Shown: positions 51,001 to 57,000, counted from the first letter of the whole stretch. The stretch is 62,341 bases of DNA, filler included, from Caldilineae bacterium (GCA_037446815.1; 11 parts of 11 records of this genome joined end to end with filler, not necessarily neighbours in it); one strand, 5' to 3'. Made by a program: the numbers.

Positions 51001-54000
51001 GAGGGCAAGCGGGTGGCCGATTTGCCGCTGCCCAACGATTGCCTCTTGGTAGGCGCCATCCGCGGCGACGACATCCTGATGCCACGGGGCCACACCGTGC
51101 TCCAGGCCCACGATGAGATTCTCGCGCTGGTCCGCACGGAATCGTACACGGTATTTCGCAACCTGTTGGCCAGTCCATCCCGCGCCGAGGCATAGCGGCA
51201 TTGCGTTTTGGCGGGATTCGTAACTCGGTTCCAAACTGTGAGGGCTGGGGTGAGGGCGNNNNNNNNNNNNNNNNNNNNNNNNNNNNNNNNNNNNNNNNNN
51301 NNTTAATTAATTAANNNNNNNNNNNNNNNNNNNNNNNNNNNNNNNNNNNNNNNNNNNNGGCGGTGGGGCGCGGGCGCCCGGCAACAGGCGTGGGCGCGGC
51401 AACCAGCGCGGCCTCGCGCTGCAGCGCCCGCGCGCCCGCCCAAATCAGCCCGGCCTCCACGACGAGCAGCACGGCGATGAGGGCGATGAGTACGTTTCGG
51501 TTGAGGTTGCGTAGTTTGGTCATTGTAGCAGCCTTTGGCCGTTAGCAATCAGCGATCAGCGGTCAGCGATCAGCAGTCAGCGGTCAGCGGATTACCGCTG
51601 GTGGCTGAACGCTGAATGCTGACCGCTACTGTGTTGGCCTCCACACGGCAAGCCCCTCCATGCCCGGGTTGTCCGGGAATGCGAACAGCGCGCCGGTCTT
51701 CGTGTCCAGAATCCACAGGTTGCCGTCCGGCAGGTAGCCCTGCCCTTGCCAGACGAGCGTGTAGGACAAGTAATGCCCATCGGGCGACCACGCCAGGAAC
51801 TGCGGCGAGGACTCCGGGCTGCCGCCGATGGGGAACGCCGTGGCCGCTCCATCCTCCAGCGTGTGGATGTACAGGGTGTGCGCGCCTTCGCTCTCGCTCC
51901 ATACGATGCTGGCCAGCCGCGCGCCATCCGGCGACCAGGCCAAGTCCATGACGTAGCCCCGGTCCAGGAGCGCATAGCCGCCTGTCCCATCGGGCCGCAC
52001 CAGCCGCACGCCGTTGCCTTTCTCCACGTCCGTGTACGCCAGCCACTCGCCCGTCGGCGACCAGCGAACTGTCGTGGCTTCGGGGATGAGCAGGGACAGC
52101 GCCCGCTCGCTCACGTTGTACAGCCAGGCGGCCGTCGGCACTTGCTCCGGCAGGGTCGGCGCGCGACCTGCGGGCGCATAGGCCACCGCGTTGGGAGCGA
52201 CGAAAGCCAACGAGGTGCCATCGGGCGACCAACTTATCGCCACGGCGCTGACGGTTAGCGTGAGCGGGTGGGTTTCGGTGGCCAGCGTCGCGACGTTGGC
52301 GATGATGAGTTCGCCGGTAATGGGGCCGCCTTCCCGGCCGGGGAACACGGTGCGCAGCCACGCGACGCGCCGCCCGTCGGGAGACCAGGCCGGCTCGGCC
52401 CATCCGAAGCCCGACGCCTCGCCCAATTGTCGCTCCACCGGCTTGTCGCCCTCCAGGGTCATCAGATACACGCCGCCGACAGAAGCCCGGCCGCCCCTTG
52501 TGGAAACCTGCGTCGCCAGCCGCACGAAGGCCAGCATCTTGCCGTCGGGCGACCAAGTTGCGAAAGCCTCGTTCTCGGGCGTCTGGGTCAGCGGCTTGAT
52601 GCGCTGGCCCGCGGCGTCGGACAGGAACAGATCCAGTTGGCCCTCGGTGCCGACGGCAACGTAGGCGATTTGCCGCGTGGCCTGCCCACCCGACGGCGGC
52701 CGCAGCCACAGGTACGCCACGCCCGCGGCCGTGAGGATCACGCACACGCCCAGCGCCACGACGATGCGGGCGAGGAGGGTGTTCAGTTTCTCTGGCGTAA
52801 CATCACTGCTCATAGCCGTCAGCAATCAGCAATCGGCATCAATGTTCACTTGCCCACGGTCTTCTTTCATGCCTCTCAGCGTTTGCAGAAATGACGTGAG
52901 CATGCGCTTGACCTCTATGACTCGCTCCTCAAGTTGCTTGTGTTCCGATTCACCCAGAAGACCCAGGTCGCGTGCGAGCAGAAAGTGGTACTCCGTTTCG
53001 CTCGCCGAGCCCATCGCGATTTGGACAAAGCGGGCAAGCTCGGCATCGCCGCTTCTGCCGCAACCCTCCGCCAGATTGGCGGCGATTGAAGCAGAGGCCC
53101 GCCTGATCTGACTGGTCAGTCCATAGGTCTCTGTCTTCGGGAACTCTGCTGTCGCTCTGTAAACCGCTATCGTCAATTCGTGCGCCTTGTGCCACACCTT
53201 CAGCGTCCGGAAATCTCGCACACCCACCTCCTTGAGCAATTCACTGCCGGCCCTCATCCATCCGGGTGCTGATTGCTGATGGCTGACGGCTGATGGCTGA
53301 CCGCTGACTGCTAGTAGTGATACTGCCTGCTCGCCGTGATGAGCGCCAGGTTGACGATTTGGCCGACTTTGCCGATGTGGCTTGCCTGGGCGTCGTCGGG
53401 CGAGCCGCCGCGGAACGCGCTGGGCGCCTGATGCCATGCCAGCGTCGCCGACTTGTCGGCCAGTTCGGCGCAATAGGCGTGGGCGCAGGCCGTGCCCCTG
53501 AGCACCGAAGCGCCGGTAACTTGCGCGCTGCGCTTGAGCAATTCGCTCAACGTGTTGCTCTTGGCCTCGGCGAGGAGCGGGTCTTCACCGCTGCCCACGC
53601 TGCCTAGGTGAATCACCGCGTTGCGCTCCAACGAGCGATAGGGCGTGAACTCGGCCAGATATGTCTGCGCGCCGCTGGTCTCCGAATAGCCCGCGGCCCA
53701 GATGTTGAACAGCACGGTGCGGCGCGGCTTGAACTGCTCGGCGTGCCACAGGCGGGCGATCTCCAGCAGGATGCCCACGCCGGCGGGGCCGTCGCTTGCG
53801 GACACGAACGGGTGGCCCGGATTCGGCTCGGGCATGTCGTAGTGCGTGGACACGACCAGCGCCTCCTTGTCCAGCGACGTGTCGTTTCCGGGCAGGATGC
53901 CGAGGACGTTGTATCCCGTGCGCTCCTGCGGCTCGCCCAGTTCCACCCGAACGCGCACCTGCATCGGCAGCGGCTGGGCGAACCACGGCTTGTCGGGCGA

Positions 54001-57000
54001 GGCCGCCCCGAACGCGTCCGCCTGCGCCTGCAAGTCGGCCACGGTATAGCCCGCCGGTTGCAGCAGGCGGTCGGCGGCCTCGGGGCGGACGTGCAGGATG
54101 GGGAACGTCGGCTTTTCCATGAAGCCGAATTCGCCCGCGGCCCAGTCGGTGTGCGGCGCGGCGTCCTCGGTAACGATGAGGATGGCCTGCGCGCCGCGGA
54201 TTAGGGCCTCGGTGTCAAAGGCCGCGGGCATGTTCTGGCCCAGCACAAGGACGATTTGCCCGCGCAGGTCTAGCCCGCGGAATTCGGGATACCGCACGTT
54301 CTGGCGCGCGAAGCCGACAAAGGTCAGCGGCGCCTGGGCGCTGCCGGAACCGCCGTGCCGATACACCTGCTCGCCAAAGTCCGCGCCGTGCGCCAGGGCG
54401 ACGGTATGCCCGGCTGTCTGGGCCTCCAGAATCGGCACGCTGAGGCGCGGGGCCACCATGCGGACAAGCGGCTGCAGGAATTCCTGGCCGCCTGCCGCGG
54501 GCAACACACCGTAGGCTTCCATCTGCTCGGCGATGTACTCGGCGGCGGCGCGCGCTCCCTCGGTGCCGAAGCCGGGGTCGCCCTGCTGAAGTTCCACGAT
54601 GCGCGCCGCGTGTTCCAGCGCGTGCTCCGCGCTGAACTGGCTTGCCAGTTTCGCGTAGGACACGCCCGGACTGATTTGGCTGACAATGTACCAAGTGAGT
54701 AGGGTGATGGCCGCGACGACCACGACCATGCGCTTGGAGATGATGGCCGCAGTGTTCACCCCGGCCTCGCGCACGATTCTGCGCAGGCCCTCGCCCGTGA
54801 GGTTGAACCCCAGGACGGCCACGAAGAAGGCCATGGCCGGCCAGAACACCATCCACGGCGATGTGCGGATGTAGGCGCGGGCGCCCGCCAGCATGGCGCC
54901 CCATTCGGGCACGTCGGCGATGGCCACCGTCCCGCCGAACCCCTCGGTCTGCGCGCCGCCGCCGATGAACACGCCCACGAATCCCAGTTCGCCCAGGATC
55001 ATCAGCACGGCGCCCATCTCCAGGAGCGCCAGCACCACCAACGCGGGCAGGACATTGGGCAAGATGTGCCGCACGATGATGCCCGTCTCGGTCAGGCCGA
55101 TGACCCGCGCCCCCTCCACAAAGGGCTTCTGGCGCAGGCTCACGAACTCGCTGCGGATGTACTGGGCGATCTCGCCCCAGCCCACCAGACACAACGCGAT
55201 GAGGAACGCCGACAGCCCCTTGCGGATGTCCAGCGCCAGGATGAGAATCATGCCGGTCAGCAGCATGGGCAGCGACGACAGAATCTCCACCATCCCCATG
55301 ATGACGCGATCCGCCAGGCCGCCGGCGCGCCATCCGGCGATGGCCCCCAACCCGAATCCTAGCAGCAGCCGCGCCATCGCCACGAACAGGCACGCCACCA
55401 GGGTGTTGCGCGCGCCGTACAGGAGCAGGCTCAGCACGTCGCGCCCCCACTGGTCTGACCCCAGCGGGAACTCCGCGGAGGGCGGGAACGGCGGGAAGAC
55501 CAATTGGCCGTTGATCATCTCGGACGAGCGCTGGGCCGAGAGGTACGGGTTCTGCGACGCGAAGCGCGGCCCGACGACGGCCACGGCCAGCAGGAACAGC
55601 ACGATGAGCATGCCCGCCACGAACGGGAAGTTCATCGTGATGAGCCGCCAGCGGAACCGCCCCGTGCGGATGGTGGTGTCGGGCGCGGTGCTGTTGCGCC
55701 TCTTGCGTATACGTTCCAGAGCGTCCGAAAGTCGTAACATACCGAAGCCTTCAGCCATCAGCCTTCAGCCGTCAGCAAAAGTTTCCTGATCGCTGACCGC
55801 TGATGGCTGACCGCTAAATCTCTCGTTGCTTCAATCGTGGATCCACATACCGATATGAAATATCCAGCAGTACGTTCACGAGCATAAACGTTAGCCCGAT
55901 GACCAGCGCCATGCCCGCCACGCCGATGTCCTGGCGGTTGCGGATGGCGTCCAACAGGGCCGCGCCAATGCCCGGCCAGCCCAGGAAGTACTCCACCACG
56001 GGCAGGCTTCCCAGCGAGAATCGCAGCGACACTCCCAGCGCCGTCAGGACGGGAACGGCGGCGTTCGGATAGGCGTGGCCGCGCGTTACCATGGTATCGT
56101 ACAGGCCCTTGGCGTGGGCGGTGCGGATGTAGTCCTGCTCCAGAATCTCCGAGAAGGTCATGTAGGCGATGCGGGCGAGATGCGCGAGGGGCCGGGCCGC
56201 CAGCACCAGCGTCGGGATGACGAGATGCGCGTCCCACCCGAATCCCCCGACCGGAACCAACCGCACGCCCGTGGCCCGGAACCAGTAGATTTCCGCAATC
56301 TGGAGCAGGGCCGCGGCGAAGAAACTGGGCACCGACACGCCGATGAGCGTGGCCGTCATCGTGCCGAGCGACACCGGCGAGCGGCGATGGATGGCGGCGA
56401 ACACGCCCACAGGGATGCCGATGAGCCCGGCCACGAGGAGGGAGATGAGCAGTAGCCCCATGCTCTTCGGGTAGGCATCGCCGATCATCTGGGCCACGCT
56501 CACCTGCCGCGAGGAGCGCCCCGAGCGCACGGTGATGGTGCCCATGTCGCCGCGCAGGAGGTTGCCCACGTAGTCCACCGTGGATGTCCAGGCGTATTCG
56601 GCGGCCGGGAGCGGGTTGTACGAAGGCGCGGGCGATGTGGAATTGCGCGCCATGCGCATCCCGAAGAACGCGAAGAACACGATCCCAAGGCTGACCGCTA
56701 GGGTGAACGCCAGACGTCTGATCGCGAATCGGAGCATTGGCTTCTCTTCTGGACTGACCTTTCGCCTAGTATACGCCGAACGGCGTCTGTGGGCAAAGGC
56801 GGTTACAACAAGNNNNNNNNNNNNNNNNNNNNNNNNNNNNNNNNNNNNNNNNNNNNTTAATTAATTAANNNNNNNNNNNNNNNNNNNNNNNNNNNNNNNN
56901 NNNNNNNNNNNNTTGCGAGATTCTTCGCGGCTGCGCCGCTCAGAATGACAGTTCACGGGGCGGTTCGCGGCGATTTGACCCGACGCCGCCCTTTGCCTAC

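Follow-up and report, generated by a model that had tools for sequence, protein, structure and literature searches.

A DppC-type ABC permease of Caldilineae bacterium with a seventh helix and an M28-fold ectodomain of degenerate active site

Can an ABC importer carry its own peptidase at the outer mouth of the pore? The question is raised by two genes of Caldilineae bacterium (GCA_037446815.1) in which peptide-type permease domains continue into an M28 domain. The genome-wide survey's note had read both as digest-and-import machines, whose tethered exopeptidase trims peptides at the pore, and had named the M28 catalytic residues as a check. We analyzed a window of 62,341 nucleotides, in which contigs of approximately 5.5 kb are joined by runs of N; the contig that holds the first of these genes (gene 1) spans only positions 51359–56812.

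The permease and its seventh helix

The open reading frame of gene 1 has no internal stops, and its domains are given in Table 1. Pfam places BPD_transp_1 (PF00528) at residues 128–260, with 66.4 bits against a cut-off of 26.4, and Peptidase_M28 at residues 611–740, with 44.2 bits against a cut-off of 21.3 and only positions 1–123 of the 193 of the profile covered. The top NCBIfam matches (NikC, Opp2C, Opp4C, DppC and OppC) extend over residues ~40–322, and OppC (8z21_B) and DppC (8z1v_B) are matched in the PDB over residues 30–321. Every NCBIfam score lies below its equivalog cut-off, the highest being that of NikC (171 bits versus 358.45), with DppC at 110.9 versus 483, and equivalog-level identity as NikC, DppC, OppC or GsiD was not reached. 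The EAA loop, involved in NBD coupling, is located at residues ~206–232 and is conserved among relatives: the pattern PF[IVL][ED][GSA][AG]R..G and a Glu or Asp at position 209 are found in 24 of 24, and G215, R224 and P228 are invariant.

The six helices of the permease are followed by another one, detected by hydropathy scan at residues 330–356 (682–700 in gene 2) and modelled by AlphaFold at residues 337–356. The loop between TM6 and TM7 (residues 317–337) carries five Arg or Lys residues (R320, R321, R324, K336 and R337), as expected if this loop is cytoplasmic and the C-terminal domain faces outwards. Thus, the architecture that the survey's note had described, a DppC permease with an extra helix and an M28-fold domain placed outside, is corroborated by the Pfam, NCBIfam and PDB matches, the hydropathy scan, the AlphaFold model and the basic loop. 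Pfam likewise recovered the DppB partner that the note had placed upstream, as well as the DppB-DppC-M28 paralogue (gene 2), in which two BPD_transp_1 domains are followed by Peptidase_M28 at residues 979–1175.

Table 1. Coordinates in the window of the two fusion genes, the domains of gene 1 and its neighbours
Feature	Position	Strand	Evidence
Gene 1 (P0001), 809 aa: DppC-type permease, TM7 and pseudo-M28/PA ectodomain (predicted)	53311..55740	-	Pfam, NCBIfam, PDB, AlphaFold
Gene 1, residues 1–326: six-helix DppC/OppC/NikC-like transmembrane domain	54763..55740	-	NCBIfam and PDB matches over residues 30–323
Gene 1, residues 337–356: seventh TM helix, taking the chain back outside	54673..54732	-	Hydropathy scan, AF2 model
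Gene 1, residues 357–809: ectodomain, M28 fold with probable PA domain, degenerate active site	53314..54672	-	AF2 model, structure searches, motif alignments
DppB-like partner permease, 307 aa, directly upstream of gene 1	55814..56737	-	BPD_transp_1, 102 bits (Pfam)
PD40/WD40-like beta-propeller protein with N-terminal membrane anchor, downstream of gene 1	51626..52825	-	PD40, 88.8 bits (Pfam)
Gene 2, 1187 aa: DppB, DppC, TM and pseudo-M28 (predicted) in one chain	41841..45404	-	Pfam, hydropathy scan, alignments

Fold and active site of the ectodomain

The ectodomain was modelled at a pLDDT of ~90, and its top Foldseek matches are 2ek8, PaAP, BSAP, TfR and GCPII. In VIA, its M28 alpha/beta fold aligns to AAP (1amp) with Z 31.0 and an rmsd of 2.4 over 261 residues, and the PA-containing aminopeptidase 2ek8 is matched with Z 30.8 and an rmsd of 4.5 over 377 residues; the structural alignment to BSAP covers 363 residues. 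A Pfam match to the PA domain (PF02225) was not found in gene 1 at E ≤ 0.1.

Active-site residues were assigned by sequence alignment rather than by residue-level superposition of the model, with roles as described for PaAP in a passage of PMC11313473. Gene 1 keeps H633, D635, D650 and H754. The general-base Glu (E151 of AAP, E340 of PaAP) is replaced by G684, and of the five metal ligands of AAP (H97, D117, E152, D179 and H256) only H633, D650 and H754 are present, while E152 corresponds to Y685 and D179 to G713; the motifs read AGY at the position of the EE pair and HLG where the ligand motif is xLD. Since the general base and one ligand of each zinc site are lost, the gene 1 ectodomain is, as judged from these alignments, a pseudo-peptidase. 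Structures of the GCPII mutants E424A and E424M bear the title 'inactive', and that of the AAP Glu151-to-His mutant (2anp) is titled 'functional'. In gene 2 the catalytic Glu is also a Gly (WAGGEL, with GGE under AEE of AAP in the HMMER alignment) and the five metal ligands are apparently all kept. Gene 2 might thus retain some residual or altered chemistry, given these ligands and the title of the AAP mutant.

A family search with residues 340–809 of gene 1 (E ≤ 1e-3) returned 129 proteins, and 90 of the 120 relatives listed carry PF04389 and PF00528 in one chain; an earlier search with a slightly different query range had returned 217 proteins, with both domains in 110 of the 120 listed. The presence of the fusion in ~100 independent assemblies indicates that it is not an artefact of assembly or gene calling. 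Every named source among the listed relatives is Chloroflexota, Anaerolineae or Caldilineales, in agreement with the restriction to Chloroflexota proposed in the survey's note, and a literature search found nothing on a permease-M28 fusion, which had been taken there as undiscussed in print.

The ectodomain is present at full length in ~100 proteins (29–97% identity) and is conserved along its entire length, with a mean column conservation of 0.53–0.56. Twenty-eight of its columns are invariant in 24 sequences that share 38–78% full-length identity, which argues for selection on this domain. The active site behaves differently from that of clade B, the sister clade of permease-M28 fusions. Over 99 clade members, the Glu151 column holds Gly in 86, Ser in 7, Ala in 4, Thr in 1 and Glu in 1, all five metal ligands are kept in only one, and H97 and D117 are lost in 26 and 50, respectively; the aligned sequences point to an absence of constraint at these two columns, unlike in clade B and in module 1 of the giant peptidase described below. 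Free-standing M28s from the same search carry the EE pair in all cases but P0120 (Ala-Glu) and the misaligned P0108, and vary between D and N or H and Q at other ligand columns. Clades A and C form a single clade (SH-like support 0.997), indicating that the Glu-less state is old and retained.

In clade B, the full catalytic set is found in 17 of 25 members checked, and is invariant in 16 of 16 (A2) as H, D, D, EE, D, D, the last ligand being H or Q. The clade comprises P0103, P0122–P0132, P0174, P0197, P0217 and P0231, and the Limnocylindria-type loci L081, L082, L084 and L092. By their sequences, these proteins are plausible candidates for true digestion and import in cis; none is encoded in this window.

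Conserved neighbours and unlinked transporter components

Gene order is conserved across 80 Chloroflexota loci. In all 76 related loci whose upstream sequence reaches 1 kb or more, the gene immediately preceding the permease is DppB-like. The PD40 protein of the window has a TM-like segment at residues 21–39 and an ortholog at the same place in locus L001 (73% identity); Pfam scans of 11 loci place a PD40 gene between the permease and a giant peptidase in 7. This giant, a membrane-anchored protein of 1584–2115 aa with two M28 modules, is encoded one to two genes downstream in 52 of the 57 loci whose downstream sequence reaches 3 kb or more. It is absent from the other five (L020, L042, L071, L072 and L078), and was not found near the gene-2-type loci L102, L109 and L127. 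Module 1 has a complete active site in 10 of 12 cases checked, and the residues H, D, D, EE, D, DH do not vary among the 10 copies aligned. The giant of this genome, at the start of contig C74, is 85% identical to that of L001 and carries the intact M28 module, an HEXXH module (HEFTH at 991) and a second, degenerate M28 module. An N-terminal TM anchor was identified in each of three proteins: the giant and the PD40 protein of L001, and the PD40 protein of the window.

Seeds from nine SBP_bac_5 genes match only 1 of the 80 loci, 4.4 kb upstream (E ≤ 1e-3), and ATPase seeds match 6 of 80, never closer than 6 kb; the Pfam scan of 11 loci found neither SBP_bac_5 nor oligo_HPY. An operon with an SBP and two ATPases was thus not found for gene 1 among the 80 loci. 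In the same genome, an SBP gene adjoins the permeases in 7 of 7 canonical Dpp-type loci, and SBP genes on C7, C32 and C252 have no adjacent permeases. Ten relatives of gene 2 have an ABC_tran domain fused at their N-terminus, closest to LolD, FtsE, DevA and MacB and not to DppD/F (for P0273, LolD 174.8, FtsE 144.1 and GlnQ 110.3 bits), and the best match of the fused LolD-like NBD in this genome is only 38% identical. The conserved EAA loop and these fused ATPases argue for ATPase coupling of the transporter, and the gene 1 permease is probably still driven by an ATPase whose gene lies elsewhere.

In an ESMFold2 complex, the ectodomain (357–809) and giant module 1 scored 0.59, against 0.19 for the best control, within a range (≤0.60) that includes only 18 of 157 solved complexes and both passing mismatches and is more often wrong than right; of the 157 solved complexes, 116 reached the docking mark itself, as did 2 of 215 mismatches. 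The runs share at least 75% of contacts, with a partner pLDDT of at least 88. This fold model lends weak support to docking; as both chains are homologous M28/PA modules, resemblance to solved M28 oligomers may account for the pass. Since the giant is absent at 5 of 57 loci and from the vicinity of the gene-2-type loci, docking to it cannot be the whole function.

Possible roles and known systems

The explanation that we prefer, and to which we give roughly an even chance, is that the gene 1 ectodomain acts as a receptor at the permease mouth, a non-catalytic module for holding or docking, with hydrolysis in trans. Gene 1 and the upstream DppB-like product would form a Dpp/Opp/Nik-type ABC membrane pair, in which the seventh helix carries the chain outside, to the 450-residue M28 domain with its probable PA insert. 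Ligands of this domain would be substrates, whether peptides or proteins, or the giant encoded nearby; peptides set free by the giant would then be imported locally, perhaps with the PD40 propeller as a filter. The survey's note had itself offered a receptor as the alternative to an enzyme, and this fits better given the lost catalytic residues. Its exopeptidase at the pore, with digestion and import in cis, could draw on the fully kept fold, the five ligands of gene 2, the 'functional' AAP mutant and the intact set of clade B, for which it is plausible. For genes 1 and 2 it is nevertheless very unlikely, as both have Gly for the general base and all but one of 99 clade members lack Glu there, each metal site of gene 1 is short of one ligand and other ligands are frequently lost. 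The coupling of digestion to import thus fails in cis for these two genes, but may still exist in trans through the intact downstream M28. That the ectodomain is a decaying, functionless appendage, a once-active peptidase adrift, would agree with the free variation at catalytic and metal-binding positions; it is hardly credible in view of the full-length conservation, the invariant columns, the confidently predicted fold and the age of the Glu-less state.

Two further explanations address the missing SBP. The pseudo-M28/PA ectodomain could replace it as a built-in receptor for peptide N-termini, making an SBP-independent type I importer. The rarity of linked SBP genes, their presence at all canonical loci of the same genome, the whole-length conservation and the substrate-recruiting role of PA domains, described in a passage of PMC11313473, speak for this. 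The unlinked SBP genes on C7, C32 and C252 could serve instead, and the unconserved former active-site residues make a conserved N-terminus-binding pocket doubtful. We know of no non-SBP fold that feeds a type I importer, and consider this replacement rather unlikely. Less probable still, by analogy with FtsEX and MacB-type systems, the pair might not import at all, and ATP-driven motion, relayed by the ectodomain, might control the giant or its position. The unlinked SBP genes, the kinship of the fused ATPases and the tight linkage to a surface hydrolase agree with such a role; against it, the membrane domain has an ordinary BPD_transp_1 importer fold with DppC and OppC matches over its whole length, LolD-like NBDs are similarly close to those of amino-acid importers, and mechanotransmission is, to our knowledge, not known for this fold.

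When compared with DppBCDF, OppBCDF and NikBCDE (8z1v, 8z21, 8wd9, 8j5q), gene 1 matches DppC and OppC over their full length with its residues 30–323 and shares the upstream partner and the coupling loop, but differs by its seventh helix and 450-aa ectodomain, the absence of closely linked SBP or DppD/F genes in 80 loci and the sub-cut-off NCBIfam scores. With the PA-domain M28 aminopeptidases 2ek8 (Aneurinibacillus AP), 8ac7 (PaAP, P. aeruginosa) and 6hc6 (BSAP/YwaD, B. subtilis), the ectodomain shares the M28 core, that of AAP, and probably a PA insert in it; unlike these secreted enzymes, it has Gly for the general base, lacks two ligands in gene 1 and is tethered to the membrane through a permease. 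Peptidase-containing ABC transporters (PCATs) carry an N-terminal cytoplasmic C39 peptidase domain on an ABC exporter; no C39 match was found in gene 1 with Pfam, and its peptidase-like domain is C-terminal, extracytoplasmic, of M28 fold and on an importer-type permease. The transferrin receptor (Foldseek rank 7; Z 27.4) is likewise an M28+PA ectodomain without catalysis on a membrane protein, used for binding. The C-terminal helical dimerisation domain of TfR and GCPII (M28B) is absent, as gene 1 ends at residue 809 with the M28 core and its alignment to TfR stops at TfR chain residue ~607. Nicastrin, the substrate-gating pseudo-peptidase of gamma-secretase, has a dead M28-like ectodomain; it was not among the best 50 matches listed in either structure search. 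Instead of a single-pass anchor or a protease, as for TfR and nicastrin, gene 1 has an ABC permease as the membrane partner of this domain. GlnPQ is an ABC importer with covalently fused substrate-binding domains. In OpuA too, as described in the abstract of PMC11065425, an extracytoplasmic substrate-binding domain is fused to a type I importer permease; in both cases the fused domain has the classical SBP fold, whereas that of gene 1 has a peptidase fold. The clade B fusions share DppC, TM and M28, the Chloroflexota origin, the upstream DppB and the lack of nearby SBP and NBD genes, and hold an intact, invariant catalytic set where that of gene 1 is degenerate.

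Architecture and topology of the two fusion proteins

Pfam searches recovered the architecture that the genome-wide survey's note had claimed for gene 1 and gene 2, namely permease domains followed by a C-terminal M28 peptidase domain, with the DppB partner encoded upstream of gene 1. The gene 1 product carries BPD_transp_1 at residues 128-260 and Peptidase_M28 at 611-740, the latter match being confined to profile positions 1-123 of 193. Its residues ~40-322 match the NCBIfam models NikC, Opp2C, Opp4C, DppC and OppC, all far under their equivalog cut-offs, and the solved chains 8z1v_B (DppC) and 8z21_B (OppC) align with residues 30-321.

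A hydropathy scan gave six permease helices plus an extra one, which spans residues 330-356 of gene 1 and 682-700 of gene 2. DppC-type permeases normally end in the cytoplasm, so that a seventh helix places residues 357-809 of gene 1 (the ectodomain) outside. The survey's proposal that this helix flips the C-terminal part to the outer face agrees with the scan, with helix 337-356 in an AlphaFold2 model (24 family members) and with five Arg/Lys residues in the loop ahead of the helix. In this model the ectodomain has a pLDDT of about 90, the membrane part being weaker, and it is predicted to consist of an M28 core into which a PA-type domain is inserted. Structure comparison by VIA matched it to the Aeromonas/Vibrio aminopeptidase (AAP; 1amp) with Z 31.0 (261 aligned residues, rmsd 2.4), to the PA-containing Aneurinibacillus enzyme 2ek8 with Z 30.8 (377 aligned), and to transferrin receptor and GCPII with Z about 27. 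Foldseek returned the same families. Nicastrin was absent from the best 50 rows of either search, and its likeness to the ectodomain is an analogy that we assume.

The window consists of contigs of about 5.4-5.8 kb, decreasing in size and joined by paired 44-N runs, and genes across an N run are not genomic neighbours. Besides the fusion gene, the gene 1 contig carries just three genes: that of the DppB-like permease, a small 23S-rRNA-intervening-sequence-family gene and a PD40 beta-propeller gene. The ORF called for the small gene extends into the end of the fusion gene, and the true start therefore probably lies further in; at L001, a locus 88% identical to this one, the PD40 gene directly follows the fusion gene, and the intervening gene thus looks like a recent insertion. 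The contig of gene 2 is short. The ORF beside it on the opposite strand matches Emfourin, which we take to be a metalloprotease-inhibitor family.

Coordinates of features in the window and at related loci
Feature	Sequence	Position	Strand	Remarks
Gene 1 (DppC + TM + M28-like)	window	53311-55740	-	809 aa; ORF without interruption
DppB-like partner permease	window	55814-56737	-	next gene upstream of gene 1
PF05635 gene (23S-rRNA-intervening-sequence family)	window	52826-53473	-	127 bits; between fusion gene and PD40 gene
Gene 1 contig	window	51359-56812		four genes, single direction
Gene 2 (DppB + DppC + M28-like)	window	41841-45404	-	1187 aa; two BPD_transp_1 and full-length M28 match
ORF beside gene 2	window	40202-41428	+	last 90 residues: Emfourin (PF20242, 32 bits); weaker DUF6438 match (22.5 bits, under the 30-bit cut-off)
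Competing ORF	window	40103-41383	-	without Pfam match
Multi-4Fe-4S ferredoxin-domain protein (504 aa) adjoining DUF362 protein	window	59875-62339	-	DUF362 protein runs off window end; contig other than gene 1's
100-N scaffold gap	window	15808-15907
100-N scaffold gap	window	41529-41628		just downstream of gene 2
Tandem DppB+DppC+M28 single-chain genes	L127	4978-12436	+	two genes, 1207 and 1226 aa
Papain-family (C1) protease gene with lectin-like domain	L010	18621-21848		after giant peptidase gene
Papain-family (C1) protease gene with lectin-like domain	L013	19182-21419		after giant peptidase gene

Active site of the ectodomain and the three fusion clades

In AAP the metal ligands are His97, Asp117, Glu152, Asp179 and His256, and the general base is Glu151. 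M28 enzymes in general employ five residues as metal ligands and, beside the ligand Glu, a further Glu as general base. For the P. aeruginosa aminopeptidase (PaAP), PMC11313473 gives the ligands His296, Asp308, Glu341, Asp369 and His467, with the site completed by Glu340. We used sequence alignments to assign the corresponding residues of both fusions, which the survey had read as tethered exopeptidases, and that reading did not hold. The HMMER alignment placed 'WAGGEL' of gene 2 under AAP 'YAAEEV', so that all five ligands appear to be retained and the base is replaced by Gly; gene 1 has 'WAAGYS' at this position, retaining H633, D635, D650 and H754, with G684 at the base, Y685 at the ligand Glu and G713 at the ligand Asp positions. 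Gly, Ser and Ala at the base position provide no comparable acid-base group. Among the matches listed in the family search, we tallied 99 proteins (P0001-P0099, P0001 being gene 1). The Glu151 column holds G in 86, S in 7, A in 4, T in 1 and E in 1; the ligand is kept in 73/99 at His97, 49/99 at Asp117, 30/99 at Glu152, 54/99 at Asp179 (D or E) and 56/99 at His256, and all five in just one protein. In the free-standing M28s from the same search (P0106-P0121), the EE pair is present except in P0120 (Ala-Glu) and the misaligned P0108, and some of them vary (D/N or H/Q) at other ligand columns. We conclude that the ectodomain is, as judged from these residues, a pseudo-peptidase.

A second fusion lineage came to light when P0103, itself fused and with seemingly intact motifs, served as query. 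Clade A (gene 1 type; ~810 aa, DppC + TM + M28) and clade C (gene 2 type; 1150-1320 aa, DppB + DppC + M28, motif 'GGE[RL]') lack the catalytic Glu. Clade B (P0103 and relatives; DppC + TM + M28) keeps the EE pair and all other positions in 17 of the 25 fused proteins checked, and its catalytic positions are invariant across 16 aligned members, the last ligand being His or Gln. A FastTree phylogeny (85 PA+M28 modules, 455 columns) was drawn from 23 of ~99 clade A, 12 clade B and 6 clade C sequences, 24 giant-peptidase modules and 20 free-standing enzymes, the others being omitted by choice. Clades A and C form one clade (SH-like support 0.997), which indicates that loss of the base is old and common to both window genes; this clade is joined weakly to part of clade B (support 0.405). 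The survey's scheme of digestion and import in cis thus fails for gene 1 and gene 2, where the base is lost, and is plausible for clade B, which lies outside the window and has an intact catalytic set. A sister clade with intact sites offers a natural comparison of active and dead domains.

Gene neighbourhoods, the giant peptidase and the missing binding protein

Querying for loci with a single protein gave only 3 close loci, and with alignment A1 gave 80, all of them MAG records at species level. Their labels are Chloroflexota, Anaerolineae, Caldilineae or Promineifilaceae, except for two (Zixibacteriota and Patescibacteria); one family search gave about 100 clusters at 90% identity among the matches listed. 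The neighbourhood counts come from a Pfam scan of 92 ORFs at 11 loci and from tblastn, run against all 80 loci with seed proteins. A DppB-like gene lies directly upstream in 76/76 loci with at least 1 kb of upstream sequence. Downstream, 52 of the 57 loci with at least 3 kb of sequence encode a giant multi-M28 peptidase, the exceptions being L020, L042, L071, L072 and L078. In the 11 Pfam-scanned loci the giant ORFs measure 1584-2115 aa and contain two M28 modules, with further domains in some (PA, Peptidase_MA_2 or the membrane domain DUF418). Between fusion and giant there is a PD40 gene in 7/11 loci by Pfam and 13/57 by tblastn, which is insensitive for PD40, and we do not claim that this gene is universal. 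The giant of our own genome (1563 aa, 85% identical to that of L001) opens contig C74 at its first base. What divides the cluster in this genome is therefore just a contig break, which also accounts for the giant's missing N-terminus.

Ten of the 12 giants checked have the full catalytic set in module 1 (residues ~25-547 of the C74 ORF), and this set is invariant in 10 aligned; module 2 is variably degenerate, Asp117 being Lys in the own-genome copy. HEXXH occurs in just 3 of 12 giants (own, as HEFTH at 991, L001 and L010), so the MA module is not a constant active part; the L006 giant has a further 'HEVAH' in its N-terminal region. The L001 giant and the PD40 proteins of L001 and of the window each have a single hydrophobic N-terminal anchor. 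The giants of L006, L027, L047, L054 and L067 open with a DUF418 multi-helix membrane domain rather than a single anchor, and a separate PD40 gene is missing in four of these loci, L006 retaining one. Gene-1-type neighbourhoods are rich in surface proteases: besides the C1 cysteine protease genes at L010 and L013, L012, L015 and L019 have C39-like peptidase genes on the upstream side.

We looked for import components with seeds from our own genome (nine SBP_bac_5 genes and eight DppD/F genes) and three LolD-like ATPase-domain (NBD) pieces. At E<=1e-3, a substrate-binding protein (SBP)-like match was present in only 1/80 loci (L072, 4.4 kb upstream) and any ABC ATPase match in 6/80, all at least 6 kb off. 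At the canonical Dpp-type loci of our own genome (contigs C12, C18, C27, C31, C44, C45 and C90) an SBP gene stands beside the permeases in 7/7; a DppD/F pair is also present at C18, C27, C44 and C90, other ABC ATPase matches lie near C12, and none is adjacent at C31 and C45. Orphan SBP genes are located on C7, C32 and C252. The EAA loop, conserved in 24/24 relatives, suggests that the permease is still built for meeting an ATPase.

The locus search for clade B returned mostly generic M28 genes of other phyla, with clade B itself only at L081, L082, L084 and L092. L102, L109 and L127 from this search are of gene-2 type, and around them Pfam detected neither an SBP nor an NBD nor a giant peptidase, so that their surroundings offer no clue to gene 2; the tandem pair at L127 has no SBP, ATPase or giant within about 6 kb. 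Ten relatives of gene 2 (P0251, P0253, P0255, P0259, P0260, P0265, P0270, P0273, P0277 and P0291; chains of 1439-1620 aa) bear an ABC_tran domain, which in the six re-scanned is N-terminal in the same chain, ahead of DppB+DppC+M28. In the two scanned with NCBIfam, this ATPase is nearest LolD, FtsE, DevA and MacB, not DppD/F. A LolD-type NBD on the membrane domain of a Dpp-type importer is an odd pairing, and in P0292 and P0293 a CoaE kinase domain takes the place of the ATPase. The best match of the P0273 NBD in our own genome (C82) is only 38% identical, and no partner ATPase could be named.

Possible roles of the ectodomain

All parts sit on the outside of the cytoplasmic membrane, the giant being the enzyme and the permease bearing a dead copy of the same fold. 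In the most economical reading, this dead domain would bind substrate, the giant, or both, so that proteolysis would be held beside the uptake pore. Complex prediction for the ectodomain with giant module 1 gave a score of 0.59 versus 0.19 for the best control, the mark being passed by 116/157 solved complexes and 2/215 mismatches, and at 0.60 or below by only 18/157 together with both mismatches. The runs share at least 75% of contacts, with a partner pLDDT of at least 88. We regard this as a weak hint of docking: both chains are homologous M28 modules, and the pass may stem from likeness to solved M28 oligomers. Docking is also not the whole story, since gene-2-type loci have no giant nearby.

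Alternatively, the ectodomain might act as a receptor replacing the SBP, or the permease pair as an FtsEX-like mechanotransmitter, an idea prompted by the fused ATPases of LolD type. Residual catalysis could be envisaged especially for gene 2 with its five ligands: an AAP Glu151-to-His mutant structure is titled 'functional', so some base substitutions leave the enzyme working, while GCPII structures in which Ala or Met replaces the equivalent Glu bear the word 'inactive' in their titles. A functionless, decaying remnant was rejected. The ectodomain stays full length, with 28 invariant columns in 24 sequences sharing 38-78% identity with gene 1 (mean column conservation 0.53-0.56, versus 0.71 for the membrane part), and such retention and constraint argue for a pseudo-peptidase instead. 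We tentatively propose, and ourselves think rather unlikely, a surface peptide harvester peculiar to Chloroflexota: a Dpp-type permease pair without soluble SBP, whose fused nicastrin-like dead aminopeptidase would serve as receptor and as dock for the giant, coupling proteolysis to uptake, possibly with a LolD-like rather than DppD/F-like ATPase.

Both the permease and the M28 fold belong to known families. What is new is their combination, the pseudo-enzyme ectodomain, the fixed partnership with the giant peptidase and the absence of a linked binding protein. Full-text literature searches returned nothing on permease-M28 fusions or bacterial pseudo-M28 domains, and the family searches confirmed that public records give the members no more specific name than 'ABC transporter permease subunit' or 'M28 family peptidase', as the survey had remarked. 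Anaerolineae are abundant degraders of protein and necromass in digesters and sediments, and their peptide-capture machinery bears on their competitiveness.

According to the current view, a type I ABC importer needs a dedicated SBP with the classical SBP fold. In contrast, the widespread Dpp-type permease family described here carries a large outer-face pseudo-enzyme, has no linked SBP and keeps a fixed gene order with a giant surface peptidase. Should the ectodomain prove to be a receptor or dock, an ABC importer would here be fed in a novel manner, and there would be a bacterial parallel to transferrin receptor and nicastrin, in which dead M28 folds were turned into binding modules.
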